NCBI GenBank assembly: GCA_023136775.1
Contig: JAGLQO010000001.1
Coordinates: 47,488-111,487, forward strand
Reading direction: 5' to 3'
DNA from: Candidatus Pacearchaeota archaeon
GTDB taxonomy: Archaea; Nanobdellota; Nanobdellia; Pacearchaeales; GW2011-AR1
Length of the DNA: 64,000 nt
The translations under genes and the position numbers were made by a program. The notes under the pieces were generated by a model. That model saw only the letters and a program-made list of their open reading frames with translations. It searched no databases and was not told where the DNA came from. This document shows positions 28,777 through 51,710 of the stretch, one piece after another (the stretch's first letter is position 1; each line of letters starts with the position of its first letter).

Positions 28777-28783
28777 TCTGGTA

Positions 28784-29612: not shown

Positions 29613-29711
29613 TTCTTTTCCCCTTCGAAAAATATAGAATTTTATAAGTTAGTTAATAACTAACAATTGAAATAATTAACGCCACACCGTTAAGATGTGA
29701 CGTTAAACTGG

Positions 29712-30287: not shown

Positions 30288-30395
30288 CTTTTTCTCCTTA
30301 GAAAAATTTATTTATTTATTTCAAAAGCTAATTAAGGATTGACTGTAATTTGAATTAACGTCACATTGTTAAGAGGTGACGTTTGAGAAATTCAA

Positions 30396-30632: not shown

Positions 30633-30724
30633 AATATACTCCTATTAAAATTATTTTTACCAAATTTCTTTAGTTTTGGATTTTTTAGACACTTTTAGTG
30701 AGTTCAAAATTAAAATGAATGAAA

Positions 30725-30934
30725 TTAAATAGATATTTTATTCCATTCATTCCTTTTGAGGAAAGTTAAAATTAAACTCAAAACAATAAGGAAAATATAC
30801 AGGCAAACTGCAATGAAAAAAGTAGCTATTTGTATAACAGGGAACCATGCAGCTATAGCATCCATATTAAAGTAACCCATAGCGATTGCCATAATAGAAC
30901 TAACCATCAACATAATACCGCTAAATTTACGCAT
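30725..30934 (-). CDS. small membrane protein (69 aa)
   Basis: GAAGGAGAAAT RBS; 2 TM segments. Confidence 0.5.
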   Translation of the reverse strand: MRKFSGIMLMVSSIMAIAMGYFNMDAIAAWFPVIQIATFFIAVCLYIFLIVLSLILTFLKRNEWNKISI

Positions 30935-31000
30935 GATATTTCTCCTTCAAATTTTAAAAAAACAGGAGTCTCTTGTAAAAATAAGAGACTCCTTTTGGCG

Positions 31001-31555
31001 TTACATAACCTGCACCCAAGTTACAGATAGATCATATCCCAGAGCTTCAGCATTCAAAACACCAACATCATCATTAAGTTCCCCAGTAAAATAGTAATCG
31101 ATGGGAAGTTTAATGCCCAGGTTTTCGAAGAATTCCAGAAGTTCATTGTTGACATTTTCATAGTAAACTGGTGTTACCTTTAGTTCTGTTCCATTCAGTT
31201 CATAGATGGCAGCAATTCTGAACTTACCCATAACAAGTTTAACATACTCATGTTCAAAGATTTCTACAAAAACCGGATTAAGATACTTTTTAGGTATGTA
31301 TACCGGTTTCCCATCTTTGGTGAGTTCCAGATTGGAAGCTTGCCAGATTGCGAGAGGTTTGTGTTCTTTTTCAACAACCTCTATAGCAGGTTTGGCGGCT
31401 ACTTCTTCAACAACGGCTTTCGCAGCAACAGGTTCAGCCAGAGTTTCAACAACGGGTTCTTCTACTACGGTTTCTACTTTTTCTGTGGTAGCACAAGAAG
31501 CTAAAGCAAAAAGTAATACCAAGAGAACCAAAAAATATACTGTGTATCGTTTCAT
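31001..31555 (-). CDS. putative lipoprotein
   Basis: start at MKRYTVYFLV behind TAGGAGGTG; lipobox ALASC; Val/Glu/Ala-rich linker. Confidence 0.65.
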   Translation of the reverse strand: MKRYTVYFLVLLVLLFALASCATTEKVETVVEEPVVETLAEPVAAKAVVEEVAAKPAIEVVEKEHKPLAIWQASNLELTKDGKPVYIPKKYLNPVFVEIFEHEYVKLVMGKFRIAAIYELNGTELKVTPVYYENVNNELLEFFENLGIKLPIDYYFTGELNDDVGVLNAEALGYDLSVTWVQVM

Positions 31556-31794
31556 GATACACCTCCTATTTATCTTCACATTTTATGGAGATTATTATTT
31601 ATAAGACATCAACGATGTCTCACCATCCCCACAATTGCTTCTTGGATTTTTTAGAAGTTAAGGGACCAACCTCTTTATTCACTAAGGATAAAGAAAGTTT
31701 TAATTTATAAAATACAATTCATTCTAATGTTTTTTCATATGGTAAATAAATAACAAAAAAAGGGCTTGTTTCAAAGAAACAGCGGCCCTAATTG

Positions 31795-32508
31795 TTAGAA
31801 TTCAGATACTCCTAAAGTTATACCAATAGCGTGATAGTTTCTTTCGAAGAAGTATGCATGAGAAATACCGAGCAATATTCCAGAGGGCTTTTCACCATCC
31901 CCAAGTACAATGTTTAACCCAGATCGCATGTAGAAACCACTTCCAAGAGAATAGCTATCGTAGATTACACTATCATTTGGTGCACCACAATAATCTACAC
32001 CTCTATAATGTCCAGTAGTAATGGTATAATGATGAAATGATTGTTGGAAATAAAAGCATCTTTCAGTTCCTTTTCCCAGTCTTACAAAGTATCCTCCATA
32101 AAAGAAAAACTCGCTGAAATCAATCCCTTGGAGCCTTACTGGATCCCACCAGTCTACGGTGATAGATTTACTGGGCATCGTCGCAAGCATTGAAATCCCA
32201 ATAAGCGGACCAAAGCTGAATAAGTGATTCAACTCAAGAGCAAAAATGCCCATTTCTATAAAGATGGCATGCATACTTCTGCTGCTACCCTCGTAAAGAT
32301 CCATGCCATTGTTACTTGAGGGAATGAAAAGTAATTGCCAGTTTTCAGGGATTGGTTCATTAAAGTCATCCATCATATCATTAGGATTAAGCAAAAAACT
32401 GATTCGCATCCCCCACTTAAGATTGTCCACAGGGACAAAATTAACATCAACCGCGAAGGCATTAGCTGAAATCAAGAGAATCATAAACACAAAAAAGATC
32501 TTTTTCAT
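31795..32508 (-). CDS. outer-membrane beta-barrel-like protein
   Basis: GGAGGTG RBS; signal peptide ...ANAFA; C-terminal ...LGVSEF. Confidence 0.6.
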   Translation of the reverse strand: MKKIFFVFMILLISANAFAVDVNFVPVDNLKWGMRISFLLNPNDMMDDFNEPIPENWQLLFIPSSNNGMDLYEGSSRSMHAIFIEMGIFALELNHLFSFGPLIGISMLATMPSKSITVDWWDPVRLQGIDFSEFFFYGGYFVRLGKGTERCFYFQQSFHHYTITTGHYRGVDYCGAPNDSVIYDSYSLGSGFYMRSGLNIVLGDGEKPSGILLGISHAYFFERNYHAIGITLGVSEF

Positions 32509-32957
32509 AACACACCTCCAAAATGGTTATTTCAAATTTATAGCCAAAAAATTCTAAAGAATCTTATAATAAAAAAGTCATTCATAATATTTTTTTGTTT
32601 AGCTATCTTGAAAAGAATCAACGATTCTTGTAAATTAGAACTGGCTTAATTTACCTCCTAATATAGAATACATTAATTTTTAATCACGTATTTCACGTGA
32701 ATATCAGAAATAATTTATATGGAAATACCTTATTTAGGGTATTTCGGTAAAATAATATAGTTGCTATAAGCTTGTCGCTTGAGAATTTTTTTTGAAATAA
32801 CCTATTTCGCAAAATTTTTATTTTTCGCTTAGGGTATTTCTTTTGGGATTTTCCACTTTGTTTCTTGAGGGTTGAAAATTCAATTTTTTTATTGAATTGT
32901 TATTACTTGTTTTTATGTTTTGTTTGTGGAAATTTTTGTTTGTGTGAATGTGAATTG

Positions 32958-35009
32958 TTAGTTAGTTGGTCTGATAATTTTTTTCCAACCTTTGTCATAT
33001 TTTATTTCATTAATTTTAATTAATCCTTTTTCTATTAATGTATTTTTTACATTAGTTCCTTTTCTAGTTGAAAGATTAATTTTTCGATATACTTCAACTG
33101 TACTAAGTTCATGAACAGGATTTTCGCGCAAGAATTTCATAAAGACTTGCTCGTCATTAGTTAAGCTATTATCTTGTGAGTTGTTACTACTTTTAAATGT
33201 TACTACTAGTTGGTTTTCAAAAACTTTGTTTATCACGGTCATAATATCAAGACTAGTATACTTACCTTGAGTTTTACTTTTTTCCAAGATTTTTTCAATT
33301 TTTTCAAGTTCAATTCCAGCCTTTAAATGTTCAATTGTAAAATCATGAATCATTTGTTGAACATCGGTAAATGAATTCTTTGAATTCATGGGGGGTGTAA
33401 TTCTGCGGAATCTACTGGTCTGGGGTGAGCGGGTGAGCGGGTTGGTGGTTAGGTGAACTTCGTTCACGATTATTTTTTCGGGAACATTGTTGCGTTGTTC
33501 TTCGACGCTTGTTGATGATTGAGTTAAGTTATTTGTGGTAGGTTCTGTTTTAATTTCGATTGGTTTTTTCTTCGGTGCAAGTGGAGATTCTATTTCGGAG
33601 TTGAATTTAGTATCTACTTTTTCCCCATAGTCGTGGTTTAACATCATGGCTTGCATTCTTGCTTTTATGTCGGCATTTGATACATGTTTATCTCGCAAGT
33701 CAACATTTGGTACTTCAATTAAGAAAGGCATGGTATACCGTTCCGCTAGTTTTACAATGGCATTTCCTACGGCTAATTGTGAGAAATAATTTTTACTTTC
33801 TTTAATATCCATTATTCCACTAATATCAAAAATATCTTGGGGAAGTTGTTGTTGAAATGCTATGTGACAAGCAGAGTTTCCTTTTACTGTGTCAGAAATT
33901 TTTGAAATATGCTGGTCTAGGCAAACTAGGCTAGTTCCATATTCTCGCATTTCTCTGTATATCATATCTGTTGTTGATTCGTTTGAGAAGCTTGTCGGTT
34001 TTTTTAAGAAGATATTATGTGCTTCGTCAACTATAATTGCGTGGTCGAAAGATTGGTTGGGGTGATTTTGTCTTGCTTTTTTTAGTTTGAAAATGTAGGT
34101 TAGTACAAATTCGCAGAAGAATGTTTTTTCAATGTTTCCTAGAGAGTTTAATTCCATTACAACTTTTTTGTTTAATAAATCTTCGACGCTAAAAGAATTA
34201 GTTCCTTTGTAGTTTACAACTTTTCCAAATTCTCCAAATGTTAAAACTGTTGCAACTCTTAAGGCTGATTCAATCCAACCCGATTCTCGGTTATTTACTT
34301 TATCCATTTTTTCCTCCAATCTCCATTTAATGTGATTCCATGTTGGATAGTTTTCACTGCCGTTGTAAATTCCCCATTCTTTGAAAGCTTCATCTAGAGT
34401 TTCTAATATTACTTTATGAACTCCAAATGATGCCGAGAAAGCTTCCGTTAAAAGGTCAGTTAATGTGTTAATCCATTCTTTTGGAGCTACTCCTTTTGGC
34501 GGACGATTGATGTTTGTCTTGAATAAGTTGCTTACAGATTCGTCTCCTACGGTAAAGGTCATTATATTATTATCAATGGCAGAAAGTGGTCTGAAAGATT
34601 TTTTCCAGTCGAAAATTAAATAAGGTTTTTTGTTCGCGTTTAGTGCTTCAATTATTTTGAATGCAAAAGTTGTTTTTCCAGAACCAGACATTCCTGTAAC
34701 ACAGATATGACGTGGCCAATCTTTTTCTCGTAGTTTAAAGGGGAAAAGTTTTCTTTTGGCGTAGCTGATTGTTGCTAATTCGTATGTTCCGTTGATTTGT
34801 TCTTCTCTTGGAGGTTCTAATAAAACGCCTTTGTCAAGTAATTGATTAAGATGTTTTTGGTAAAGAGCGTTTAGAATATGTACGATTTCTTCTCTATCGT
34901 CTCGTCCTTCTGCTATGGTATATTGGAAATAAATTTCATCTACTTTTTCTCCGAAGACGGGACGCAATTTATTACAAATTTCTTCAACTGATAATGGTCT
35001 TTGTATCAT
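32958..35009 (-). CDS. FtsK/HerA-superfamily P-loop ATPase (DUF87-like) with C-terminal winged-helix-like domain
   Basis: Walker A VTGMSGSGKTT, Walker B AIIVDEAHN; C-terminus LSTVEVYRKINLSTRKGTNVKNTLIEKGLI is wHTH-like; ATG abuts the stop of the upstream gene. Confidence 0.7.
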   Translation of the reverse strand: MIQRPLSVEEICNKLRPVFGEKVDEIYFQYTIAEGRDDREEIVHILNALYQKHLNQLLDKGVLLEPPREEQINGTYELATISYAKRKLFPFKLREKDWPRHICVTGMSGSGKTTFAFKIIEALNANKKPYLIFDWKKSFRPLSAIDNNIMTFTVGDESVSNLFKTNINRPPKGVAPKEWINTLTDLLTEAFSASFGVHKVILETLDEAFKEWGIYNGSENYPTWNHIKWRLEEKMDKVNNRESGWIESALRVATVLTFGEFGKVVNYKGTNSFSVEDLLNKKVVMELNSLGNIEKTFFCEFVLTYIFKLKKARQNHPNQSFDHAIIVDEAHNIFLKKPTSFSNESTTDMIYREMREYGTSLVCLDQHISKISDTVKGNSACHIAFQQQLPQDIFDISGIMDIKESKNYFSQLAVGNAIVKLAERYTMPFLIEVPNVDLRDKHVSNADIKARMQAMMLNHDYGEKVDTKFNSEIESPLAPKKKPIEIKTEPTTNNLTQSSTSVEEQRNNVPEKIIVNEVHLTTNPLTRSPQTSRFRRITPPMNSKNSFTDVQQMIHDFTIEHLKAGIELEKIEKILEKSKTQGKYTSLDIMTVINKVFENQLVVTFKSSNNSQDNSLTNDEQVFMKFLRENPVHELSTVEVYRKINLSTRKGTNVKNTLIEKGLIKINEIKYDKGWKKIIRPTN
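33424..33515. repeat. GC-richer segment shared with 41493..41585 (lies inside the ATPase CDS)
   Basis: shared blocks GGGTGAGCGGGTT, GTGAAC-TTC-GTTCACGATT, ACATTGTTG. Confidence 0.7.
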
Positions 35010-35231
35010 TTATTTTACTCCATACAAAACTTTGGCTTTGTACATTTTTTTAAGTATACCTTCTTTAAATCCAGCTTTCTTTCCAGGGTCAAAAAATTTA
35101 GTTTGATAATTAATAAGTTTTCTTGTTGATCTACTATCTAAATCGGTTTTGTCTTCAGTAATATACTTGATGTAACATTCTCGTGCTTTATTGAGTGCAA
35201 CTCTTGCTTCTCTTCCATAATTTCTTTCCAT
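35010..35231 (-). CDS. small basic protein (73 aa)
   Basis: ORF translationally coupled to both neighbours. Confidence 0.5.
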   Translation of the reverse strand: MERNYGREARVALNKARECYIKYITEDKTDLDSRSTRKLINYQTKFFDPGKKAGFKEGILKKMYKAKVLYGVK

Positions 35232-35232
35232 C

Positions 35233-35670
35233 TTATTCAGTTAATATCTTTTCAAGCATTTCTGCTCTAGAAGTCTTTTCATTTATTTGTAGATTATGTT
35301 CACGAAGTTCTCTTTTTAGTAATGAGATATCTCTCCAACATCCTATTTTTTCATTAAGTTGTAATTCTGAAATATCTAGTTGTTTCTTTCTTAGTTCGGA
35401 TCTTTCTCTGGCAAATTCAGAATCATCTTCTCCTTTTGGGGCATTTTCTAATAGAAAATTATTGATGCTACTTTTCATGGCTTCGCCTTCTTTGATGAAT
35501 CGTCCACTTAAAGTATTTCTTTCGCCAATCATTTCTTTAATTTCTGTTACTACGTCCTTTAAAGAGTCAATCTTTGCTTGTCCTACGGAACTAAAGTTTT
35601 CAGAGGAGGTATTCCACGTATTTCCCCTAATAGGATTTTGAGGTATTTCGTTTATTTTGAGGTTTTCCAT
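35233..35670 (-). CDS. coiled-coil protein (145 aa)
   Basis: first gene of the three-gene unit; TTTATATA box ends 21 nt before the ATG; no RBS. Confidence 0.55.
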   Translation of the reverse strand: MENLKINEIPQNPIRGNTWNTSSENFSSVGQAKIDSLKDVVTEIKEMIGERNTLSGRFIKEGEAMKSSINNFLLENAPKGEDDSEFARERSELRKKQLDISELQLNEKIGCWRDISLLKRELREHNLQINEKTSRAEMLEKILTE

Positions 35671-35771
35671 GATGAAATAACCTATTTTGGCTATATAAAT
35701 GTTTCTATTTGTTGTTTCTTTAAAGGGGTAACAATTTAGATATATTTTGGATAAATCTTAGGTTATTAAGT

Positions 35772-36377
35772 TTAATCTTCTTGATTTTGAAAAATAGGAT
35801 GTTTTATTACTCTATAATAATTTCCTTCTTTTGAGTCGTTTTCAAATCCTAGAGATTCAAATAGCAACATTGACTTGTAATTATCTTCGTGAATTTTTGC
35901 TATAGTTGGAATACCTACATTTGTAATATTATTAATGAGTTCTTTTGCATGTCCTTGATTTCTGTTGTTTTCGTTAACTGCAATTATTCTAAGATATCTT
36001 CTGAATCCATTGTCTTCATAGGCAGCGGCAGCAACTATATTGTCTGATGTTAAATTATTTCTTACTATAATACTATTTTCATCTTTTTCTAGGCTTGATA
36101 CAACATGGTATCCATGATCTACTCTTGAAAATAATGAATCTATTTCTTTTTCTTCTGTTGTTTCATAAGGTCTTGTCTCGAAGTTATCGAGTCCAGCATC
36201 ATTAGTATCGTTATTAATTGCAAGATATTTGTTTGTAAGTTCTGGTGTCCATCCGCCATTTTTTTCTGCCTTTTCTATTATAGAATCTAAACTTTCTATA
36301 AATATATTATGATATTTATCTTTATAAAGTTTACTATTTGTTGTTTCTGTGAAGTAGTGACACTTATTTGAAAACCA
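35772..36377 (-). pseudogene. GNAT-family N-acetyltransferase-like ORF without a usable start codon
   Basis: I translated 201 open codons between TAG (36380-36378) and TAA (35774-35772); contains RIIAVNENNRNQGHAKELI (acetyl-CoA motif A-like); no ATG/GTG/TTG until 27 codons before the stop, so missing from the ORF track. Confidence 0.55.
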
Positions 36378-36456
36378 CTATATCTCTAGAAATAAATTGA
36401 TCTGGACGAGATTCTAAAATTGGTTTTATATAAACTTTCAATCCAGTTTTTTCTGC
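36367..36456. repeat. 90-bp direct repeat, copy 1 (detached copy of the last 30 codons of the methyltransferase gene)
   Basis: 89/90 identical to 37354..37443 by direct comparison; the single difference is synonymous (TAT/TAC). Confidence 0.9.
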
Positions 36457-36505
36457 TACCGTATGTTGACACAGATTATTTAAAGCTAAATATATTAACA
36501 ATGAA

Positions 36506-37333
36506 ATGGAAGATGGAAAGAAGTTAGTCATTTTTCAAGATAAGAAGATAAGAAGAATTTGGCATAATAATGAATGGTATTTTTCAGTAAGTGATATTAT
36601 AGCGGTTTTAACAAATAGTATTGATCCTGTAGCATATTGGAGAAAATTAAAGCAAAGGCTAAATGAAGAAGGAGATAAAACCGTGACAAATTGTCACGGT
36701 TTGAAAATGCTTGCTCCAGATGGAAAATTAAGATTTACAGACTGTGCAAATACAAGATCTCTTTTCAGAATAATACAATCTATTCCTTCAAAGAAAGCTG
36801 AACCATTTAAGCAATGGCTAGCACAAGTGGGATATGAACGAATCGAAGAAATTCAAGATCCAGAACTAGGGCAGAACAGAATAAAAGAATATTATCAGCT
36901 TAAGGGATACCCAAAAGAATGGATTGATAAAAGACTTCGTGGAATTGCAATACGACAAGAACTAACAGATGAATGGAAAAATAGAGATATTAAGATGCAA
37001 AAAGAATTTGCAATTCTGACTAACGAAATTTCTAAAGCAACATTTGGTAAAACAATTGGAGAATATAAAGATTTTAAGGGACTTGATAAAGAAAATCTAA
37101 GGGATCACATGTCTGACTGGGAACTTATTTTAACAATGTTCGGAGAAAAAGCAACAACTGATATAACAAAAGAAATTAATTCTAGGGGATTTGAAGAGTG
37201 CCAAGATTCTGCGAAAGAAGGTGGAAATGCCGCAAAAGAAGCAAGAGAAAGCGTAGAAAAACGTTTGGGAAAATCAGTTATTTCTAATGAAAATTATTTA
37301 TCGAAACAAAAAGAAAATAAGACGTTAGAATAA
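36506..37333 (+). CDS. BRO-N (Bro/KilA-N-type) domain protein
   Basis: N-terminus LVIFQDKKIRRIWHNNEWYFSVSDIIAVLTNS is typical BRO-N; A/T TATA-like box upstream. Confidence 0.7.
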   Translation: MEDGKKLVIFQDKKIRRIWHNNEWYFSVSDIIAVLTNSIDPVAYWRKLKQRLNEEGDKTVTNCHGLKMLAPDGKLRFTDCANTRSLFRIIQSIPSKKAEPFKQWLAQVGYERIEEIQDPELGQNRIKEYYQLKGYPKEWIDKRLRGIAIRQELTDEWKNRDIKMQKEFAILTNEISKATFGKTIGEYKDFKGLDKENLRDHMSDWELILTMFGEKATTDITKEINSRGFEECQDSAKEGGNAAKEARESVEKRLGKSVISNENYLSKQKENKTLE

Positions 37334-40233: not shown

Positions 40234-40425
40234 ATGGAATCACAAATGATAAACGTCGACGCCGATGATTTAAGGCAGCTTATATCGGATGTTAAGTTAA
40301 TGAAAGAAATTCTTTTGTCAAATGGATTGTACTCTGAAGATGAACTTAGTGATTGGGCAAAAAAAGAGTTAAAGGAATCAAGAGAAGAGAATGAGGAAAA
40401 TTATGTATCTCTTGAAAATTTATGA
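40234..40425 (+). CDS. putative antitoxin (63 aa, acidic)
   Basis: 4-nt ATGA overlap with the downstream RelE-like gene. Confidence 0.5.
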   Translation: MESQMINVDADDLRQLISDVKLMKEILLSNGLYSEDELSDWAKKELKESREENEENYVSLENL

Positions 40426-40670
40426 ATTTCGAAATAAAATTTTCATCTAGGTTCGCCAAATTTCTAAGAAGTTTACCTAATAATATTCTAAGTAGAATAA
40501 AAAATAAATTTGAAATAGTTTCTACAGATCCATTTAGATATCTTAAACATTTTGAGGGGGATGGGTATAAACTCAGGATTGGAGATTTCAGAGCAATTAT
40601 TGATGTCGACAAGGATAGAAATATTTTATTTGTTAGAATTTTTGATAGAAGAGGCAGAATTTACAAATGA
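40422..40670 (+). CDS. RelE/ParE-family toxin
   Basis: YKLRIGDFRAIIDVDKDRNILFVRIFDRRGRIY matches the RelE core. Confidence 0.7.
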   Translation: MNFEIKFSSRFAKFLRSLPNNILSRIKNKFEIVSTDPFRYLKHFEGDGYKLRIGDFRAIIDVDKDRNILFVRIFDRRGRIYK

Positions 40671-41474
40671 ATGCGTTTGAATATAAATCCTTTTAATATT
40701 GAATATTTATATTATTTCATGGAAACTGAGTCAAGAATATCTGCTGGAGCTTATGATTTGAATAAGTTTTTGGTTGGAGGATATGAAACAGATATTATAA
40801 CAACGCTTTATGGGTCGGGTGGTTCTGGCAAATCAAATTTTTGTATAATGGTTGCAGTTTCTCAAGCAAAGAAAGGAAATAAAGTTATTTTTATTGATAC
40901 TGAGGGTGGATTTTCCGTAGATAGATTTAGGCAAATTCATTCAGGAGAGGAGTCAGACATTAAGAGAGATTTGCAAAATGTTTTACTTTTGAAGCCAACT
41001 AGTTTTAAGGAGCAGGAAAAATCTTTTGAGCAGTTATTAAAACATGTGAAAGCCGGAGATGTTAATTTAATCGTCGTGGATTCGATTGCAATGCTTTATA
41101 GAATTGAGCTTGGAGAGGCTATTAATTCAAAGGATTCTTATAAAATCAGCGAAGTCAATAGAAAGTTGGCTGTTCAGCTTCGAACATTGAACGAGATTTC
41201 GCGGAAGCAAAATATTCCAGTCATTGTTACAAATCAAGTATATTCAACTTTTATTTCTGATGATCGATTACCATCTACTAATTCAACTTCTGAACCAAGG
41301 GCCTCTATGGTTGGAGGAGATTTGTTAAAATATTGGAGTAAGTGTATTATTGAATTACAAAATAATTTTGGAAAACGAAAAATAATTTTAAAGAAACATC
41401 GAAGTATACCAAATAAAGAATTTAATTTTGAAATTGTTAATACAGGGATTAAGAAGAAATCAGCATTTTTCTAA
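40671..41474 (+). CDS. radB: RadB-like recombinase paralogue
   Basis: Walker A YGSGGSGKS, IFIDTEGGFSVDRF, Walker B LIVVDSI; the true start may be METESR at 40719. Confidence 0.8.
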   Translation: MRLNINPFNIEYLYYFMETESRISAGAYDLNKFLVGGYETDIITTLYGSGGSGKSNFCIMVAVSQAKKGNKVIFIDTEGGFSVDRFRQIHSGEESDIKRDLQNVLLLKPTSFKEQEKSFEQLLKHVKAGDVNLIVVDSIAMLYRIELGEAINSKDSYKISEVNRKLAVQLRTLNEISRKQNIPVIVTNQVYSTFISDDRLPSTNSTSEPRASMVGGDLLKYWSKCIIELQNNFGKRKIILKKHRSIPNKEFNFEIVNTGIKKKSAFF

Positions 41475-41756: not shown

Positions 41757-44057
41757 TTAACTATTTTTCTTTACGGTCTTTTTCTTTACGGGTTTCTTTT
41801 TTGTTGCAACCTTCTTTTTCGTAGTCTTTTTCTTTTTCGCTTCTTTGGATTTTTCGGCAGCTTTTCTTTCTTTTTCAGCCTCTTTTACATGGTCGACTAT
41901 TTTACCGTCGATAATTTCAATTTCACCTTTTGCTAATCGTTCTTTAAATTCTTTCTTTTTCTTTTGGGCTTCTTCGTTTGTTGAACACTCTGGATTAAAA
42001 CAAAGTTTCCATGGTGCTCCACCTTTTTTAAATATTGCAACTTTGGGCCATCCACATTCTTCACATTTTTCTAAAGCTCCTTCTTCTAGTCCTTTTTCTT
42101 CGCATTGTTTTTTTGAAAGTCTAGCAGGTTTTGCAACCCCCTTTGGAGGAAGTGAATAAATTGTTTTACATTTAGGGTAGGCATCACAACTTACAAAATA
42201 TCTCGAAAATCTTTTCCCGTACATTACTCTTAATTTTCCCTTGTGGCAAACTGGACATTCAGTCATTGTATTTTGTTCTTTTTCTTGTTCCCAAACAATT
42301 GCATTTGCGTCAGCTAAACATTTCCCCATTTTTTCGATATTCTTACTCATACTTTCAGCAATTTTTCTAACTTTTTCTTTTGCATCTTCTAGAATTTCTC
42401 CTTCTTTTTCTTCTAATCCATTTTCTAAAAGTTCCATTTCTTCTAATTTTTCAGTCATATCTTTTGTCATTTTTTCATTTAAAATTATTGGAGCGTATTT
42501 TTCTAAAGTATCACACATTCTCATTCCAAGCTCTGTAACTTCAATGCTTTTTTCTATTGCATATCCTCTAGAATAAAGTGTTTCAATAATATTTGCTCTA
42601 GTAGCTTTTGTTCCAAGTCCTCGTTTTTCCAGTTCCTTAACAAGTGAAGCGGCCGAATATCTTCCAGGGGGTTTAGTTTCTTTTTCCTCTGTTCTAATTT
42701 CAAGTACATCCACATTTCCATCTATCGTCGGTATTTTAGCTTCTTTAGTGGAATATGGATAAACATTCATCCAACCTTTTTCTTTTATTATGTTTCCTGT
42801 GGCAGTGAAGTTTAATCCATTTACAACAACTTTTATTCTTTTGTTTTCAACTAATCCCGCTTGCGCAAAACAAGAAATAAATCTTTTTACAATTAAATCA
42901 AATATTTTTTTATCTCTTTCTGGGACTTTTTTATTTTCTCCAGTTGGATAAATTGCAGGATGCGCAGGATCAGATTTTTTACCTTCAGTCGGTTTTTTGT
43001 TTACAGCATATTTCACTAAAGTAGTATACTTTTTCAATTTCTTCAAAATTTTATCGTAACCTATTGATTCATCGTATTTTTGAGAGGAAGTTCTTGGATA
43101 AGAAATTAAACCCGCGAGATAAAGACTTTGTGCAGTTTTCAAAGTTTGAGATGGAGTAGACCCACAATATCTATACGCTTCGGTTTGTAATGTCGTTAAA
43201 TCAAATGGAGTTGGTACTGCGACAACGTTTTCTTTAATAGTAGTTTTGGCTTTTCCACTTTTTCCTTGAAGGTGTTTGAATTTCAAAAGTTCTGATTCGT
43301 TAAAGATATCTTTTGGATGTTTAACTTCTAGTTTTTGATTTTTAATATCTTTTATTTGAAGGTATATATTCCAAAAAGGTTCTGGAATAAATGCATTTAT
43401 TTCTTTTTCCTTATCTACAATTATTTTTAGTGCTGGACCTTGGACTCGACCAATAGAAAGTATTCTAAAAGTTCCAGTAGAACTTAATGCTTTCATTAAT
43501 CCACGAGACAAATTTATACCGTAGAACCAATCAATATAATGACGAGTTTCTCCTGCAAATGCTGCTCCCCAATTGAGAGTTGGAAGTAAGTTTTCAAATG
43601 ATTCGTCTAATGCTGGTTTTGTTAAAAGTGAAAATTTCATACGTTTAGCATCTTTTTGTTTGCAAACAAATCGTACAATATTCCATCCAATAACTTCTCC
43701 TTCTACGTCAAAGTCCGTCGCGACAATAAATTCATCGGCTTCTTTTGCTAATTTTTTTAGAACACTCAAATATCTTTTCGTAAAAGCTCCACTTTTCTTT
43801 TGATGAGCAGGAAACCAACCCACTTCGAAATTTGGGAAAGGTCCTCTTTTGGCTATTTGTTGAACTCCAAATAAATGACCAACTGCACAACCTACTATGT
43901 ATCTTTTAGTTCCTTTATAAAATTCATAATAAGAAACTTTGTCTTTGTTTGTTATTTTTTCGTCGGTTGCTCCACTTAATGCTGCTGCAATTTTTTCAGC
44001 TGCTGCTGGTTTTTCTGTAATAATTAAAGTTGTATTTTTATTAACTTTCTTTGCCAT
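41757..44057 (-). CDS. topA: type IA DNA topoisomerase (TopA-like) with zinc ribbons and Lys-rich tail
   Basis: Toprim LIITEKPAAAEKIA / DFDVEGE; ISYPRTSS active-site region; CPVCHKGKL...CDAYPKC zinc ribbons; start at MAKKVNK with a TATA-like TTTAAATATAA upstream. Confidence 0.9.
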   Translation of the reverse strand: MAKKVNKNTTLIITEKPAAAEKIAAALSGATDEKITNKDKVSYYEFYKGTKRYIVGCAVGHLFGVQQIAKRGPFPNFEVGWFPAHQKKSGAFTKRYLSVLKKLAKEADEFIVATDFDVEGEVIGWNIVRFVCKQKDAKRMKFSLLTKPALDESFENLLPTLNWGAAFAGETRHYIDWFYGINLSRGLMKALSSTGTFRILSIGRVQGPALKIIVDKEKEINAFIPEPFWNIYLQIKDIKNQKLEVKHPKDIFNESELLKFKHLQGKSGKAKTTIKENVVAVPTPFDLTTLQTEAYRYCGSTPSQTLKTAQSLYLAGLISYPRTSSQKYDESIGYDKILKKLKKYTTLVKYAVNKKPTEGKKSDPAHPAIYPTGENKKVPERDKKIFDLIVKRFISCFAQAGLVENKRIKVVVNGLNFTATGNIIKEKGWMNVYPYSTKEAKIPTIDGNVDVLEIRTEEKETKPPGRYSAASLVKELEKRGLGTKATRANIIETLYSRGYAIEKSIEVTELGMRMCDTLEKYAPIILNEKMTKDMTEKLEEMELLENGLEEKEGEILEDAKEKVRKIAESMSKNIEKMGKCLADANAIVWEQEKEQNTMTECPVCHKGKLRVMYGKRFSRYFVSCDAYPKCKTIYSLPPKGVAKPARLSKKQCEEKGLEEGALEKCEECGWPKVAIFKKGGAPWKLCFNPECSTNEEAQKKKKEFKERLAKGEIEIIDGKIVDHVKEAEKERKAAEKSKEAKKKKTTKKKVATKKKPVKKKTVKKNS

Positions 44058-44100
44058 CTTTAAAGAATAAGTCTGTATTATATTTAAATGTAGTGACAAT

Positions 44101-44895
44101 CTAGCTCCTAACTAAATATTCGAGTTCCTTAATTTCTTTCACATCCCTTAATTTTTCGACTACTCTATCCTGAATTTGTCTCACTCTTTCTTTTGTAATT
44201 CCATATTGTATACCCAATTCTTCCTGACTATATTTAAAATTATCTTCATTTAGCCCAGATCTTTTTTTCAAAATGTCTGCTTCTCTTGGAGTTAACTCTT
44301 TATCGAATATAGATATTAGATCGTGTCTTAAAAAATTTTGAGTTTCTCCTGGGTTATATGTGTTATCTGGAGTGGAATCCAAAATTGTTTCCCAAGAATT
44401 AGAATTGTTATAATCTAATGAAGATATAGCATTAACATTAATTAATCTTTTAATAGAATCTATATCTTCTCCCATTTCTTGTGAGATAGTTTCAATATTA
44501 TTTCCTCTAGATTCCATAATATGTATTCTTGAAAGCTTATGGTGCTTCTTGCTAGATATTCGGATTGTTCTAGATTTTTCAATCAATGCATTAGAAATAA
44601 ATCCTTTTATGTAAGATATAGCATAGGTACTAAATTTAGTATCCCTTGATGGATCATATCTTTTTACGGCTTTTATAAGTCCACAATTTCCTTCTTGGAC
44701 AAGTTCATCATAACTGAGTCCACGCCATCTAAATTTTTTAGCTTCTTTTAAGACAAGTCCAAAATTAGAATTAATCAGAATATCTCTAGCTTCTAGATTT
44801 CCTAAATCTTTTTCTCTTCCGAGTTTTTGTTCTTCATCTTTACTTAGTAGAGAATATTTTTTAGCCTCCTTTCTATAATAATCCAGACTTTCCAT
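44101..44895 (-). CDS. sigma-70-family RNA polymerase sigma factor homologue
   Basis: region 2: LINSNFGLVLKEAKKF..LSYDELVQEGNCGLIKAVKRYDPSRDTKFSTYAISYIKGFI; region 4: LTPREADILKKRSGL...EELGIQYGITKERVRQIQDRVVEKLR. Confidence 0.85.
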   Translation of the reverse strand: MESLDYYRKEAKKYSLLSKDEEQKLGREKDLGNLEARDILINSNFGLVLKEAKKFRWRGLSYDELVQEGNCGLIKAVKRYDPSRDTKFSTYAISYIKGFISNALIEKSRTIRISSKKHHKLSRIHIMESRGNNIETISQEMGEDIDSIKRLINVNAISSLDYNNSNSWETILDSTPDNTYNPGETQNFLRHDLISIFDKELTPREADILKKRSGLNEDNFKYSQEELGIQYGITKERVRQIQDRVVEKLRDVKEIKELEYLVRS

Positions 44896-44934: not shown

Positions 44935-45528
44935 CTATATTTCTATAATTATTCCATTACTTCCAACTTGGATAACTTTTGTGTTTCCTATGATATCTTC
45001 TAATCCCTCGGCTTCGTGGATATGTGCAGATATTAGTAAATCTGGTTCAAATAATCTGACCGCTTTTTCAATAATGATGTCGCCTGGTATACCTGAGAAT
45101 TCTGCTTTCGTTCCACTAGCGTGAAGGTGTGAAACTAGAATTTGTTTCCCCATCTTCATTTTTTTCAGATTTTTTTCTATTCTTGAAAAATCATCTTCAT
45201 TTAAATTTAATGTCCAATTTGGAGATCCAATTCCTGCGATTCCAACGTCGCCATATGTTACATATTTATTATGAATACATTTGGCTCTTTTTATTAAAGA
45301 AGCTGCGTCTGTGTTGAAGTCACAGTTGCCAGGAATGAAGATAACTTTTTGTTTTGCTTTGGTAAATGGTTCTAATATATTTTTATTTCCACCTTTGTAT
45401 CCATAAATGTCTCCAGCCAAAATTACTAAATCAACTTCTTCCCTTTCCCCTTTTTTTGATAATTTTTTAGCTATGCTTAAATTTCCATGCAAATCTCCCG
45501 CGGCTAAAATTTTGAGTTTCTTTTCCAT
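44935..45528 (-). CDS. metallophosphoesterase (YfcE/MJ0936-like)
   Basis: motifs AAGDLHGN, LAGDIYG, GNCD, SHLHASG, SAHIHE. Confidence 0.8.
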   Translation of the reverse strand: MEKKLKILAAGDLHGNLSIAKKLSKKGEREEVDLVILAGDIYGYKGGNKNILEPFTKAKQKVIFIPGNCDFNTDAASLIKRAKCIHNKYVTYGDVGIAGIGSPNWTLNLNEDDFSRIEKNLKKMKMGKQILVSHLHASGTKAEFSGIPGDIIIEKAVRLFEPDLLISAHIHEAEGLEDIIGNTKVIQVGSNGIIIEI

Positions 45529-45906
45529 AATAACAATTTCTATTTTAGATTTATAGTTCTTTCCTGTATAGTGGATTTTCTCTTAGGTGTTTCAAATATG
45601 AACTATTATCGTCTATTTTTTGTCTTTGGATTTCGTTATAATTTTTCATGTACCCATTAGCAAGTATTAGAGAAATTTCCCTTATTGCCGAAATAGTATT
45701 TTGATATTTAATATCAGAATCTGTGGCAATTTTTTTTCTGGTAAATCCTCTTCAGCAATTTTAATTAATAATTTAGAAGCTTTCGTACTAAGTCTTTCTA
45801 AATCACTCTTTTCTTCTTTGTCAAATTTTATACAATAACAAAGAATAGATTCTTTATATTTTTGCCTATTCCATAATTTTTTAAACGTATTTTATCTGAC
45901 TTTCTT

Positions 45907-48267
45907 ATGGTAGAAATGGCGAAGCCCAAGAAGAAAGGATACGATTTTACAGAGGTCGAACCGAGAATAAAGGAGTTCTGGGAAAAAGAAAAGATTTTCA
46001 AATTTGATATAACTAAAGACAATATTTATTCTATTGATACTCCTCCGCCAACAGTTTCAGGAGCAATGCACATAGGACATTCATTTTCATATTCTCAGCA
46101 AGATTTCATAGCAAGGTTTAGAAGAATGAACGGCGGAGTTTTTTACCCATTCGGAACTGACGATAATGGTTTACCGACAGAAAGATTAGTTGAAAAAATA
46201 AAGAAGGTAAAAAGTAAGAACATGACTCGAGCTGAATTTATCGAACTTTGCTTAGAGACCTTAAAAGAAATTACCCCAAAATTTGTAGAAGACTGGAAGC
46301 GACTTGGAATTTCTGCAGATTATGATATCTGTTATTCCACTATTGATGAAAATTCTAGGAAGATTTCTCAAAAGTCTTTTATAGATTTATATAAAAATGG
46401 CTTAGCATATCAAAAAGAGTTTCCAACTATTTGGTGTCCAACATGTCAAACTCCAATTGCTCAAGCTGAATTAGAAGACAAAGAATCCAGCACATTTTTT
46501 ACAACATTAAAATTTTCAGTTGAGGAAAAAGATTTATTGATTGCAACAACTCGTCCAGAATTACTTCCTGCTTGCGTAGCAATTTTTGTAAATCCAGCTG
46601 ACGACAGATATAAGGACTTAGTTGGGAAAAAAGCCAAAGTTCCATTAATGGATTTTGAAGTTTCAATTCTAGAAGACGAATCGGCAGATATTGAAAAGGG
46701 AACTGGAGTTTTGATGATTTGTTCTTACGGAGATAAATTCGATGTTGATGCAATTGGAAGACATAATTTAGAGGAAAAAATAGTTTTGGGAAAAGATGGC
46801 AAGTTTATCCAAGGTCCATATTCTGGAGAAAAAATAATTGACGCAAGAAAACAGATATTAAGCGACTTAAAAGAGGCAGGTTTAATTGAAGAACAAAAAC
46901 AGATTACTCACGTTGTAAACACTCATGATAAATGTGGAACAGCAATAGAATTTATTCCAACAAAGCAATGGTTCATTAAAGTTATGGATAAAAAAACAAA
47001 ATTAATAGAGCAGGGTAAGAAAATTAATTGGAATCCTGAACATATGTTCAAGCGATATGAAAATTGGATTAATGGTCTAGCATGGGATTGGTCAATTTCA
47101 AGAGAAAGACATTTTGGTGTACCAATTCCTGCTTGGGAATGTAGTAAGTGTGGTAAGATAATTTTGCCAGACGAATCAGAGCTTCCAATAGACCCACTCC
47201 AGACGAAGCGAATTTGTCCGAATTGTAATATCGAAGCTATTCCTGAATCTAAAGTTTTGGATACTTGGGCGACTTCTTCAATGTCTCCACAAATCGCAGC
47301 ATCTTTAATCGACAATAAAATAGAAATTCCATATTCTCTTCGTCCACAAGCTCACGACATAATTAGAACATGGGCATTTTATACGATAGTCAAATCTATG
47401 TACCATGAGGATAGTATACCGTGGAAGGACATTGTTATTTCTGGGAATGTTTGTATTAAAGGCGAGAAGATGAGTAAAAGTAAAGGTAATGGAGTTGACC
47501 CTAAAAAAGTTATTGAGGATTATGGAGCCGACGCTTTGCGTTTCTGGGCAAGTGGTTCAAAACTTGGAGGTGATCCAGATTATCAAGAACAGGATTTAAT
47601 CGCTGGTAAAAAAATAGTTACAAAACTTTGGAACGCATCAAAATTTGTGTTTATGAATCTTGAAGATTTTGATGGGAATAAACCAGAAATTTTAGAAAAA
47701 ATAGATGAAGAGTTTTTGAAGAATACTGAAAGTTTAGTTAAATCTGCAACTAAGCATTTTGAAGAATATCATTATTCTTATGCGAAGGCAGAAGTAGAAA
47801 GATTTTTTTGGAGCGATTTTTGTGATAATTATTTAGAGATTGTAAAAAGGAGGGTTTACCAGGGACAAGGTGAGCCAAAAAAATCTGCACAATATGTTCT
47901 TCATAAGTCACTGCTTGTAATCTTGAAATTATTAGCTCCTATAATGCCATTCATCACAGAAGAAATTTATCAGATTTACTATAAGAAAACTGAAAATGAT
48001 AAATCAGTTCATATCTCTAATTGGCCAAAATATTCAAAAGATGCTGAGAAGTCAGAATCCTTTGATAAATTTTTAGAAGTTCTAGCAAAAGTAAGAAGCG
48101 AAAAAACTTCAAATCAAAAATCTATGAATTCAGAAATTATTTTGACTCTTGATGCTGAAGATACTTTGACTATCAAGGGAATGGAAGAAGATTTTAAGTC
48201 TGTAACAAATTCTAAAGAAATTCAATTGGGCGAATTTAACGTTGAGTTTGTTGAAAAGAGCGAATAG
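45907..48267 (+). CDS. valS: valine--tRNA ligase
   Basis: IDTPPPTVSGAMHIGH (HIGH region) and KMSKSKGN; archaeal ValRS-like layout, compact at 786 aa. Confidence 0.8.
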   Translation: MVEMAKPKKKGYDFTEVEPRIKEFWEKEKIFKFDITKDNIYSIDTPPPTVSGAMHIGHSFSYSQQDFIARFRRMNGGVFYPFGTDDNGLPTERLVEKIKKVKSKNMTRAEFIELCLETLKEITPKFVEDWKRLGISADYDICYSTIDENSRKISQKSFIDLYKNGLAYQKEFPTIWCPTCQTPIAQAELEDKESSTFFTTLKFSVEEKDLLIATTRPELLPACVAIFVNPADDRYKDLVGKKAKVPLMDFEVSILEDESADIEKGTGVLMICSYGDKFDVDAIGRHNLEEKIVLGKDGKFIQGPYSGEKIIDARKQILSDLKEAGLIEEQKQITHVVNTHDKCGTAIEFIPTKQWFIKVMDKKTKLIEQGKKINWNPEHMFKRYENWINGLAWDWSISRERHFGVPIPAWECSKCGKIILPDESELPIDPLQTKRICPNCNIEAIPESKVLDTWATSSMSPQIAASLIDNKIEIPYSLRPQAHDIIRTWAFYTIVKSMYHEDSIPWKDIVISGNVCIKGEKMSKSKGNGVDPKKVIEDYGADALRFWASGSKLGGDPDYQEQDLIAGKKIVTKLWNASKFVFMNLEDFDGNKPEILEKIDEEFLKNTESLVKSATKHFEEYHYSYAKAEVERFFWSDFCDNYLEIVKRRVYQGQGEPKKSAQYVLHKSLLVILKLLAPIMPFITEEIYQIYYKKTENDKSVHISNWPKYSKDAEKSESFDKFLEVLAKVRSEKTSNQKSMNSEIILTLDAEDTLTIKGMEEDFKSVTNSKEIQLGEFNVEFVEKSE

Positions 48268-48301
48268 CAACCTCTATAAATAAATTTCTTATATATTTAC
48301 T

Positions 48302-49396
48302 ATGAATGAAGCACAAAAATTTGAACTGGAATCTTTGATTGAAGAATTGGAAGGTTACCGAGGAAGACATACAGAATTTATTACTGTATTGGTACCAGCA
48401 GGTGCGACTTTAACCCAAACCACAAAACAACTTGAAGATGAAAAAGGGACTGCTACAAATATTAAATCTACCTCAACTAGAAAGAATGTCATTAATGCGT
48501 TGGACCGAGCTGCTAGAAAATTAAAAGAGATTGCAAGAACTCCAGAAAATGGATTGGCAGTTTTCGCTGGAAATGTAACTTTTCCAGACGGGAAAGAGTC
48601 ATTGGAAGTTTGGGCAATTGAACCTCCAAAAAAATTGAAAGTTAAAATTTACAGATGTGATCAAACTTTTGTATTAGATCCTTTGAAAGAAATGTTGGAA
48701 ACTGATGAATGTTATGGGCTAATGATTATCGAGAGAAACGAAGCGACGATTGGAATGTTGGACGGAAAACATATTAAAATATTACATCATATGACTTCTG
48801 GAATCCCTGGCAAGACAAAATGCGGTGGACAGTCAGCTCAAAGATTTGCTAGAATTAGAGAATCAGCTGCCAAAGAATTTTTTAAAAGAATTGCTGAAAG
48901 AATGAAAGATTTATTTTTTGGAAATAAAAAGTTAAAAGGAATTTTGATTGGAGGACCAATCCCAACAAAAGACAGATTCCTTGATCAGGCTCAGTTGGTG
49001 ACAGAATTAAAAAATAAAGTTATCGCTGTTAAGGATTTGGGTGGAACGGGAATGCATGGATTACATGAATTAGTCGAACTTTGTGCGGATACTCTAGCCG
49101 AACAAGAATTTACTAAGCAAAGAGTTATTCTGGATTTGTTTTTTGAAAAGCTGGCAACAGATCCGAATAAAGTTGCCTATGGCGAGGCTGAAGTTGAAGA
49201 CAGGCTGAATAGAGGAGCCGTAGAAAAATTAATTATTTCTAAAAGTCTTGCTAGGGATAAAGTTAAGCTATTGGAAAAAATGGCAAAAGAATCTTCAGCA
49301 GAAATTTATATTGTAACGAACGAAACTGCCGAAGGTGTTCAGTTTGATAATCTTGGTGGCGTTGGCGGATTACTTAGATTTGAAATTCATGATTAG
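48302..49396 (+). CDS. prf1: peptide chain release factor aRF1
   Basis: NIKS-like TATNIKSTSTRKN and GGQ motif KCGGQSAQRFARIRE. Confidence 0.9.
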   Translation: MNEAQKFELESLIEELEGYRGRHTEFITVLVPAGATLTQTTKQLEDEKGTATNIKSTSTRKNVINALDRAARKLKEIARTPENGLAVFAGNVTFPDGKESLEVWAIEPPKKLKVKIYRCDQTFVLDPLKEMLETDECYGLMIIERNEATIGMLDGKHIKILHHMTSGIPGKTKCGGQSAQRFARIRESAAKEFFKRIAERMKDLFFGNKKLKGILIGGPIPTKDRFLDQAQLVTELKNKVIAVKDLGGTGMHGLHELVELCADTLAEQEFTKQRVILDLFFEKLATDPNKVAYGEAEVEDRLNRGAVEKLIISKSLARDKVKLLEKMAKESSAEIYIVTNETAEGVQFDNLGGVGGLLRFEIHD

Positions 49397-49562
49397 CGCC
49401 GACGTATAAAATTGATAAGTGATTTATATTTTGAAATATATATTTTGTAAATTGAAGGGCTTATATCCGTGAGTAATTTTTGATTAGTATTTAATAGAGA
49501 CAGCTTTCTGATTAGTTTTTTTGGATGATTAGTTTTTTAAATTGCATTTAACTGATTTAAGG

Positions 49563-51710
49563 ATGGGTGTTGAAGAGTCGTTTTCTCCTGATTCTGGAGA
49601 ATTAGAAGAAGGGGAATTGCAGAAAAATATTGATTCCGTAGAGTTGGATAAAAAGAAATCTGAAAATAAAAGATTTTTTATCAATAAAGATATGATTGTG
49701 CAATTTTTATGGAAATTTAAATTTATAGATAAAAGAATTTTTATCGGAATTGGATTTTTTTTTACTATTGCCGTTGTTTTTTATTTAGCTTTTTTTATTT
49801 CTCATAATACGGATTCGTCTCTAATTGAAGAGGATGATATTTTTGATCCTTTTAGCGACAATATTTTAAGTAAAACTCCATTAGAAGAAAAAATTGATAG
49901 TTCTAAATTTGAGGAGGAAGATGCCAATTCGGGAAAGTTTTCTGAGTTGTCCGAGAAGATAGATTCGGTTTCTTCTTCTGAATTATTTGAGGGTGTTAGG
50001 GCTAGACTTGCTGTGGGGGATACTTTGGAACTTGATATGGATTTGGCTAGACATGAATTATCAATTGATTCTATTAATGGGGAATCTGTTGAGGTTACTA
50101 TAATGAGTGATCCAATATTTACCACGTTTAAATTTAATATTCCAAAGAAATTTGATTTGAATAAGGATGGTGTTTACGATTTGGAAATTGAACTTTTAGA
50201 GATAGTTGATAAAGAGGGAATTCTGGCTATTCAGGAAATCAAAGAGTTTTATGATGTTGATTCAGAGGAGGCTACTAGCGAATTGATTGAAACTGAGACA
50301 GGATTTGTTTATGTTTCTGTTGAAGATGTTCCGTATTCTTGTGTAAGAAAGGATGGTTATGTGGAATATTTTTATCTTAGAATTTGGAAGGATGGTGAAA
50401 ATATTTTTGATGAAAAAATGTATGGTAAAACAATTTATGATTCATGTCCAACGCATGATTCATTTATTCAATATTCTTGTGGAGAAGATAATGTATTGGT
50501 TTCAACAGATGGAAATTGCAGTAGTCGTCTTGAAACTTGTTTTGAGGGAAATTGTATAATTAGCAGTTATGAAAGAAATATGGGAAAGAGCGGAAGTCCC
50601 GAAGAGAATTATTTGGGAGAAAATGAGTGTTATTTTATTATTGGAGATACTACTTTTTGGGTAAGTAGCGAAGAAGAAATTTGTAGAAATTTATTTATTG
50701 CGGATGCTGCATATGTTGATGAAGATTTATTTGGAGAATTGCTTGAATATTATGAATATGATATTTCTATGATGGAAGATGGTGTAAGGTTGAGAGACAT
50801 ATCTGTTAGCTATGTTTCAAATTTGGATAATATAAATTATTTTGATGATATTAAGGATAAATTGGTTTCAGATAAATGTGAAACTTTGGAATTCTTAGGA
50901 ATTGATTTATATTGTTTTAACGGTGTAGATGAAGTAATTAATCATAAGCTTGAATATATGATAAACATTATAACGTTTTTCAATAATCTTAATTTAGAAT
51001 ATGATAGTTTTTTGGTTGATGTTTCGCCATATAATTTTTTAATTGATGATGATATAACTTTTATTTATGGTGCTGGTTCTGAATTTTATGATGGATTATA
51101 TTTGAATCAAGATTCGGGTTGTAGTGAAGGAGACTTATTCGCTAATTATGAGAATATTGATGGGAAAAATAATATTTTTGTTTGTGATGGGTTACTTACC
51201 TATTTAACTCCATTTTATAGAGTTGCATATGCTTCAGTTATTTATCGCGAAGCTTTGGAGATGTTTGAGGGCAGGGATGAAAAATGTTATGAATCTACAA
51301 AAATAGAATATTATACAGAAAATTTGATTTGTGATTATTGTAAAGATTATGGGACAATAGATGAAAACAATCCATTTAAAAAAGATGATATAAAAAGATG
51401 TGATAAATATGATGATTCCAATACCGATATTGAATGTTTTATTGATGATAAACCAAATGATTGTGATATTTGTAACGATTGGGAAACTCTTACAAGATAT
51501 ATTCCAAGTGAGCGTGATATTCCAGCATTTTATAATAATTTTGATAGTCTATATGGAGAATATATTAATTATTTATATGGAATGTCGCAGGATGATGGTT
51601 TATTATATGTAGATAGACAAAAATTTTATTCTTTGGCTGTTGCGGAATTTAACGATTTTGGATGTGATGATGGTCCTGATTCTGATTATAAATCTATGGT
51701 TTACCCATAA
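49563..51710 (+). CDS. large membrane-anchored, acidic, Cys-rich extracellular protein
   Basis: first ATG at 49563; single TM IFIGIGFFFTIAVVFYLAFFI, then about 630 aa rich in D/E/Y/C/N; no recognisable domain. Confidence 0.6.
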   Translation: MGVEESFSPDSGELEEGELQKNIDSVELDKKKSENKRFFINKDMIVQFLWKFKFIDKRIFIGIGFFFTIAVVFYLAFFISHNTDSSLIEEDDIFDPFSDNILSKTPLEEKIDSSKFEEEDANSGKFSELSEKIDSVSSSELFEGVRARLAVGDTLELDMDLARHELSIDSINGESVEVTIMSDPIFTTFKFNIPKKFDLNKDGVYDLEIELLEIVDKEGILAIQEIKEFYDVDSEEATSELIETETGFVYVSVEDVPYSCVRKDGYVEYFYLRIWKDGENIFDEKMYGKTIYDSCPTHDSFIQYSCGEDNVLVSTDGNCSSRLETCFEGNCIISSYERNMGKSGSPEENYLGENECYFIIGDTTFWVSSEEEICRNLFIADAAYVDEDLFGELLEYYEYDISMMEDGVRLRDISVSYVSNLDNINYFDDIKDKLVSDKCETLEFLGIDLYCFNGVDEVINHKLEYMINIITFFNNLNLEYDSFLVDVSPYNFLIDDDITFIYGAGSEFYDGLYLNQDSGCSEGDLFANYENIDGKNNIFVCDGLLTYLTPFYRVAYASVIYREALEMFEGRDEKCYESTKIEYYTENLICDYCKDYGTIDENNPFKKDDIKRCDKYDDSNTDIECFIDDKPNDCDICNDWETLTRYIPSERDIPAFYNNFDSLYGEYINYLYGMSQDDGLLYVDRQKFYSLAVAEFNDFGCDDGPDSDYKSMVYP

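Follow-up and report, generated by a model that had tools for sequence, protein, structure and literature searches.

The 64-kb stretch of archaeal DNA analysed here (the window) carries an intact gene for what is almost certainly a sigma-70-family protein, and this gene is a lineage-restricted, fast-evolving occupant of a variable slot between a metallophosphoesterase gene and the gene for topoisomerase TopA (Table 1). Bacterial transcription initiation is defined by sigma factors; archaea use TBP, TFB and TFE. We suggest, with moderate confidence, that the product descends from a bacterial sigma factor and is expressed in the archaeon as an accessory regulator whose DNA-binding activity we infer.

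Table 1. The sigma gene, its parts and its surroundings in the window (aa, residues of the sigma protein)
Feature	Position	Strand	Evidence or remark
Sigma-70-family gene, 264 aa, sigma1.2-sigma2-sigma3-sigma4, no region 1.1	44101..44895	-	ATG start; profiles and model
Region 1.2, aa 3-27	44815..44889	-	Pfam Sigma70_r1_2 18.2 bits, sub-threshold; aligns with RpoS/SigA region 1.2
Region 2, aa 40-109	44569..44778	-	Pfam r2 53 bits; residue mapping
Region 2 parts: core-binding helix 2.2, VQEGNCGLIKAV; 2.3/2.4 segment, KFSTYAISYIKGFIS	within 44569..44778	-	
Sigma3-like three-helix domain, aa 115-155	44431..44553	-	AlphaFold; aligns with RpoS/SigA region 3
Region 3.2-like linker, aa 156-182	44350..44430	-	Low model confidence, pLDDT 53-68
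Region 4, aa 200-250; HTH recognition helix TKERVRQIQ	44146..44298	-	Pfam r4 40.9 bits
Archaeal-type TATA box of the sigma gene, CTTTATAAAA	44916..44925	-	TATA starts at -27 from the sigma ATG, in the 39-nt upstream spacer
Archaeal-type TATA box upstream of TopA, TTTAAATA	44081..44088	-	Inside the 43-nt sigma-TopA spacer
TATA-like box upstream of the metallophosphoesterase gene, TATAAAT	45549..45555	-	At -27..-21
TopA, archaeal type IA DNA topoisomerase, downstream neighbour	41757..44057	-	TIGR01057 topA_arch 573 bits (cutoff 458)
Metallophosphoesterase, 197 aa, upstream neighbour	44935..45528	-	Conserved TopA partner in relatives
RadB	40671..41474	+	TIGR02237 195.5 bits (cutoff 172.4); archaeal marker
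ValRS and aRF1	45907..49396	+	Archaeal core genes, syntenic in relatives

The first-pass annotation had read sigma-70 regions 2 and 4.2 in the intact ORF. Both motifs are there, and the profile search that it proposed bears the identification out. In Pfam, Sigma70_r2 (PF04542) matches at 53.0 bits (cutoff 24, E 2.9e-14) and Sigma70_r4 (PF04545) at 40.9 bits (cutoff 24.1, E 1.5e-10); the r3 and r1_1 families have no match in the protein. The NCBIfam sigma-70 superfamily model TIGR02937 gives 90.2 bits against a cutoff of 42.9. The RpoS and RpoD_Cterm models of NCBIfam align with the whole protein at about 140 bits, far under equivalog cutoffs of 354-379, and the protein thus reaches the level of neither a group 1 primary sigma (RpoD/SigA, TIGR02393: 136.9 bits, cutoff 354) nor a group 2 RpoS (TIGR02394: 141.5 bits, cutoff 378.7). 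RpoD/SigA and RpoS are its best sequence and structure matches, colinear through regions 1.2, 2, 3 and 4 (residues 6-258 in a phmmer comparison with the holoenzyme structures of the PDB), and it shares with them the QEGNxGL core-binding helix, the KFSTYA motif and the xRERxRQI recognition helix. It differs from them in having neither region 1.1 nor the non-conserved region: the N-terminal extension is absent and the protein begins at region 1.2. An AlphaFold run with an alignment of 77 sequences reached a pLDDT of 85.9 (only 43 from the single sequence) and placed sigma1.2, sigma2, a three-helix sigma3 (helices 115-129, 134-141 and 145-155, pLDDT about 79-92), a low-confidence 3.2 linker and sigma4 in order. 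In Foldseek this model matched the sigmaS and sigmaA of holoenzyme structures with a probability of 1.0. Region 1.1 masks DNA binding in sigma-70; without this auto-inhibitory region, the protein could therefore bind DNA alone.

The surroundings are archaeal, as the first-pass annotation had read them from RadB, ValRS and aRF1; profile matches bear out all three. TopA, with its ATG at 44057, is co-oriented with the sigma gene, and the 43-nt distance between the two stands. Its many relatives at 70-85% identity are labelled Nanoarchaeota, Pacearchaeota or 'archaeon', which makes the organism a DPANN archaeon. Farther markers (L10e, L35Ae, ScpB, an archaeal MCM, an RPA-like protein and Cbf5) extend the picture, so that markers lie on both sides of the sigma gene; archaeal TopA, RadB, aRF1, L35Ae, L10e and MCM share its contig, which places it among the sigma genes of DPANN archaea. 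The order metallophosphoesterase-sigma-TopA, with an identical sigma protein, recurs in four assemblies (ENA and Logan) from two samples. A bacterial contig mis-joined at this point, the outcome that would have undone the first-pass reading, was looked into, and the junction, having been assembled independently four times, effectively excludes it. The idea of a bacterial block transferred together with TopA fails as well: relatives that have no sigma share 82-85% identity in TopA, which is the archaeal equivalog. In composition the sigma gene resembles its host (GC 0.298; GC3 0.181, the same as TopA; 8th of 18 genes of comparable length by codon usage); it is no recent import from a compositionally different donor. 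Among the annotated ORFs of the window and the called genes of related loci we saw no bacterial RNA polymerase (RNAP) subunit, and in the window we found neither an RNAP subunit nor a second sigma.

One relative has a sigma gene in the same place. In MAG GCA_030639065.1, the sigma P0389 (locus L014) immediately follows the 197-aa metallophosphoesterase and has ValRS and aRF1 next to it; the DNA of the two loci is colinear over the junction, with a spacer of exactly 39 nt in each, whose core is kept as CTTTATAAA.T.GTAACA.AT. Strains of the window type and of the P0389 type co-occur in one sample; the source samples are SAMN18200494/95 (SRR13892604/05). The two sigma proteins are only 37% identical, against 85% for aRF1, 85% for TopA, 68% for RadB, 66% for the metallophosphoesterase and 58% for ValRS in the same pair. 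We suggest that the sigma gene was present in the common ancestor of the two lineages and diverged quickly; a replacement at the same slot seems less likely, and the weak tree described below (7% bootstrap for the archaeal clade, 58% for the pair) does not demonstrate one ancient acquisition.

The spacers on both sides of the gene hold archaeal promoter signals. All three co-oriented genes have a TATA-like box that ends about 20-21 nt before the ATG, and L014 has the same box at the same position with the same spacer length; a TATA at -27 precedes the sigma gene in the window, in L014 and in L013, a short contig with a further relative. Upstream of TopA in relatives, the TATA starts at -30 to -25 in 32 of 42 distinct sequences. 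A positional scan of the whole window gave a weak peak only, probably because start codons are uncertain. A TATA box at such a distance is the geometry of an archaeal promoter driving a leaderless mRNA, and it implies that the sigma gene would be transcribed by the archaeal machinery from a promoter of its own. TopA would keep its own promoter too, and co-transcription with the sigma gene need not be assumed. Sigma-70-type -35/-10 promoters match no more often near the locus than in shuffled sequences (85 matches, against 87 +/- 10), and our search for a DNA target motif of the sigma protein found none.

In the other relatives sampled the slot is empty or holds other genes. Where TopA is 82-83% identical, relatives lack the sigma and the metallophosphoesterase gene abuts TopA, and no sigma lies within 6 kb in any of 78 other TopA-anchored metagenome loci; conservation in related MAGs, which the first-pass annotation had wanted checked, thus extends to one positional counterpart and to none of those 78. 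In the 41 loci with a co-oriented metallophosphoesterase gene, that gene is directly adjacent to TopA in 15, and 0.3-4.3 kb of unrelated cargo separates the two in the other 26: an alpha/beta-hydrolase, a topoisomerase-IB-like gene, a recurrent 280-aa family or, in L008, a tyrosine integrase. The cargo ORFs of these 26, searched with the sigma profile and filters off, include no sigma. Such diverse cargo in 26 of 41 relatives makes the junction a variable accessory slot, and it is an insertion hotspot in this lineage.

It is conceivable, given this cargo, that the sigma gene too is the freight of an element, mobile or viral, for which the junction is an insertion slot, and that it serves the element and not the cell. 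Its fast protein evolution would fit, as would a 182-bit match to the phage sigma family phrog_351, the tyrosine integrase directly upstream of TopA in the MAG of P0389 and the integrase near the L013 sigma. We nevertheless find this doubtful. In the window one gene makes up the whole insert, and the interval from the metallophosphoesterase gene to TopA is free of integrase, repeats and other element genes; the sigma gene is host-like in composition; viral sigmas, at 29-35% identity, are no closer to it than archaeal ones; and it has promoter and spacer in common with a diverged relative, which implies long vertical residence.

Two further observations concern these cargo and integrase genes. 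The recurrent family of about 280 aa has no Pfam match, is 63-68% identical across loci and lies directly upstream of TopA (for example L032:4855-5691, L035:5097-5939 and L058:5150-5989, among L020-L097). The tyrosine recombinase genes (L008:1-810, directly upstream of TopA; L013:193-768, two genes upstream of the sigma P0241) may be housekeeping XerA or element integrases; the former, a 269-aa ORF, had been a sigma candidate by its size and was rejected as a tyrosine integrase.

Of the relatives that could be placed, the nearest are short sigmas encoded on archaeal contigs. A word-indexed search gave only bacterial primary sigmas (CPR and Bacilli) at no more than 40% identity, and a scan of reference genomes with the protein as query gave only remote bacterial sigmas (26-29%). 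An exhaustive HMMER search returned many short relatives of 260-290 aa, the best being P0241 (260 aa, 43% identity, E 1e-49). Context was checked for six of them and is clearly archaeal in five: P0389 (L014) adjoins the metallophosphoesterase gene, ValRS and aRF1; P0257 (L016) lies between Rpp14 and proteasome-alpha, with SBDS and RNase J; P0394 (L018) is near a ThrRS with the archaeal editing domain, P0419 (L019) near RFC subunits and P0259 near L7Ae, S28e and L24e. The short contig of P0241 (L013) has weaker markers only (an integrase, a TruB/Pus10-type pseudouridine synthase and an acylphosphatase), suggestive of an archaeal context, and the archaeal label of the other clade members is assumed. 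A profile of the clade scores its members at 329 bits or more and bacterial RpoD at 288 bits or less. In a neighbour-joining tree of 100 bootstraps the archaeal clade of 14 members is unsupported at 7%, and the window sigma joins P0389 at 58%; at these values the tree makes no claim on single or several acquisitions, or on a donor among CPR, Bacillota and phage. The gene probably belongs to a family of short sigma-70-like proteins (about 260-290 aa) that resides in DPANN archaea with Nanoarchaeota-, Pacearchaeota- or Woesearchaeota-type genomes and that we regard as ultimately of bacterial origin.

Phage contigs carry many sigmas of similar size. These short sigmas (phrog_351 and those of large-phage contigs in IMG/VR) have the same domain set, are about 250-270 aa long and align over the full length, and the differences are that, at 29-35% identity, they are no closer to the window sigma than its archaeal or bacterial homologues and that the window gene is chromosomal, with no viral genes adjacent. 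PADLOC and PHROGs returned generic sigma-domain matches only. The sigma component of the MZA anti-phage system, MzaA, aligns by its sigma domain (NCBIfam 134.6 bits, PADLOC 95.6 bits), but only the C-terminal third of the model is matched (positions 475-713); the window locus lacks both the large N-terminal portion and the partner genes, and with 134.6 bits against a cutoff of 800 we rejected membership.

Two archaeal contigs carry tandem pairs of short sigmas (L018:8190-9032 with L018:9001-9870, and a pair on a JGI 3300075153 contig), each a few genes downstream of a Radical_SAM/Radical_SAM_C gene, which suggests a second, conserved type of archaeal sigma locus with paralogues.

Sigma-70 genes in DPANN archaea have been published: Castelle et al. 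(2021, Front Microbiol, PMC8204110) reported them as fam00359, 'particularly prevalent in Woesearchaeota', ruled out mis-binning, found anti-sigma factors absent and called the mechanism unclear. The window sigma is therefore a fresh example of a known phenomenon, and the novelty implied by the first-pass annotation was overstated. The likeness, drawn from the description in PMC8204110, since no family sequences were found in its supplements, lies in a sigma-70 gene on archaeal-marker contigs of Woesearchaeota- or Pacearchaeota-type genomes with no anti-sigma nearby. That paper gives no locus anatomy; the present analysis adds the variable slot beside TopA, the promoter of archaeal type, a positional counterpart that diverges fast and a pattern of residues kept and lost. 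In the literature searched we found no later functional work on DPANN sigmas.

To describe that pattern we set 16 clade members against 20 bacterial primary sigmas in E. coli sigma-70 numbering, transferred via a SigA alignment; the roles of residues are those of established sigma-70 genetics and structures. In region 2.1/2.2, V387, G408, N409, G411 and L412 are each present in 16/16, and D403 and E407 in 13/16 each; L402 is replaced in 13/16, and Q406, a key beta-prime contact, is kept in only 6/16. The residues of the A-11 pocket are largely intact (position 419 aromatic in 16/16, D420 in 15/16, F427 in 12/16, Y430 in 15/16), with 13/16 members retaining W434 and 9/16 retaining W433. Base-specific contacts are relaxed (Q437 in 4/16, T440 in 3/16, H455 in 7/16, E458 in 5/16). 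Region 4 keeps R554, R562, E585, R586, R588 and Q589 in 12-15 of 16 (R562 in 15, Q589 in 14). The window copy itself has W433S, W434Y, Q437G, R441N, Y425T, H455K and R584K, of which all except the last alter -10, -12 and extended -10 contacts relative to RpoD/SigA and RpoS. As judged from these alignments, the -35 recognition helix and the core-binding helix appear largely conserved and the -12 and extended -10 contacts relaxed, the pattern of a protein constrained to keep a sigma-like fold, to contact another protein through a helix and to bind DNA by its HTH, with altered -10/-12 specificity. The region 2.2 helix contacts beta-prime in bacteria; its conservation, which a stand-alone DNA binder would not need, hints at a protein partner.

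The same residues bear on the idea that the protein is a true sigma for a bacterial-type RNAP, whether that enzyme is encoded elsewhere in the genome or comes from a bacterial partner or host, or from a phage-like element. In favour of this idea are an architecture and fold that are those of a sigma from end to end, the invariant G408, N409, G411 and L412 with D403 and E407 in 13/16, and the common carriage of same-size sigmas by phages. We think it unlikely all the same, for Q406 is lost in 10/16 and L402 replaced in 13/16, the protein shows no export signal, sigma-70 promoter matches are not enriched, and the annotated ORFs of the archaeal window and the called genes of related loci include no bacterial RNAP subunit; for DPANN genomes, PMC8204110 mentions archaeal TBP/TFB/TFE, no anti-sigma factors and no bacterial RNAP.

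A functionless relic of horizontal transfer, drifting towards loss, would also explain why 78 of 78 sampled TopA-anchored relatives lack the gene, why its sequence diverges so rapidly and why the window copy has lost DNA-contact residues (W433S, Q437G, R441N, Y425T). Yet the gene does not look like a decaying pseudogene: the ORF is intact, all domains fold confidently in the AlphaFold model, motifs are conserved among homologues that are only 35-40% identical, a dedicated promoter is kept and several assemblies have the identical protein. We therefore rate a relic as very unlikely. An assembly or binning artefact, in which a bacterial fragment was mis-joined to an archaeal contig, could appeal to bacterial primary sigmas (CPR, Bacilli) as the best named word-search matches and is effectively refuted by the common gene order in ENA and Logan assemblies of two samples, the colinear counterpart in another MAG, the archaeal TATA boxes in both the 39-nt and the 43-nt flanking spacers and the host-like composition.

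For the accessory regulator that we prefer, we propose the following. The gene would be transcribed by archaeal TBP/TFB/RNAP as a fast-evolving accessory gene, and its product would act as a sequence-specific DNA-binding transcription regulator through the sigma4 HTH and the sigma2 module. DNA binding would come from sigma4, with its -35-type recognition helix largely intact; sigma2, with a largely intact A-11 pocket and changed -12 and extended -10 contacts, would contribute altered recognition, and the conserved region 2.2 helix would leave room for a coiled-coil partner. The archaeal RNAP clamp coiled-coil, the site of TFE and Spt5, is homologous to the beta-prime clamp helices. It is a long shot, in our estimate, that the short DPANN sigmas dock on it through this helix and redirect the polymerase to some AT-rich promoters; were they to do so, archaeal RNAP docking would amount to a hybrid bacterial/archaeal initiation mechanism with a quickly evolving accessory regulator. 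An archaeal sigma with an archaeal promoter and a conserved polymerase-binding helix raises the question of its binding partner, and the locus is a clean test case, a single-gene insert between two conserved genes with a diverged counterpart at the same position. The promoter geometry gives a clear prediction, and residue-level predictions separate a stand-alone DNA binder from a polymerase-docking factor.

Some features of the flanks deserve mention. Beside RadB, a ParE-family toxin gene (40422-40670) follows a 63-aa ORF (40234-40425) with a 4-nt overlap, likely a toxin-antitoxin pair. ValRS (45907-48267) is 35% identical to its counterpart at the same syntenic position in GCA_018693315.1 (L012:2178-4556), where the adjoining aRF1 is 84% identical, which suggests a xenologous replacement of ValRS in one lineage. 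Downstream of aRF1 lies an acidic, Cys-rich ORF of 722 aa (49542-51710) without a Pfam match; a further assembly of this population, L001, splits it into two gene calls (503 and 232 aa), which may be a gene-calling difference or a frameshift polymorphism.

The first-pass annotation had also speculated about a link between the sigma gene and a bacterial-style left half of the window. Nothing there is diagnostic of bacteria: Pfam annotation of the left half gave no diagnostically bacterial gene, and it consists mostly of ORFs without a Pfam match, with an importer (FecCD, ABC and binding-protein genes) and mobile- or virus-like genes. Its tRNA genes at 1384-1480 (97 nt) and 4756-4860 (105 nt) are over-long and probably contain introns. 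Two others of 71 nt each (27646-27716 and 28378-28448), 730 nt apart, are given odd two-base 'anticodons' by ARAGORN and have good Rfam scores (64 and 62 bits). The virus-like genes include an RHS-repeat ORF (25002-25562), an ATPase resembling HerA or a terminase large subunit (32958-35009) and a Bro-N protein (36506-37333) that matches the phage family phrog_15286 over its full length at 330 bits. With many ORFs without a Pfam match and tRNA genes near, 25002-37333 is possibly an integrated viral or mobile remnant.
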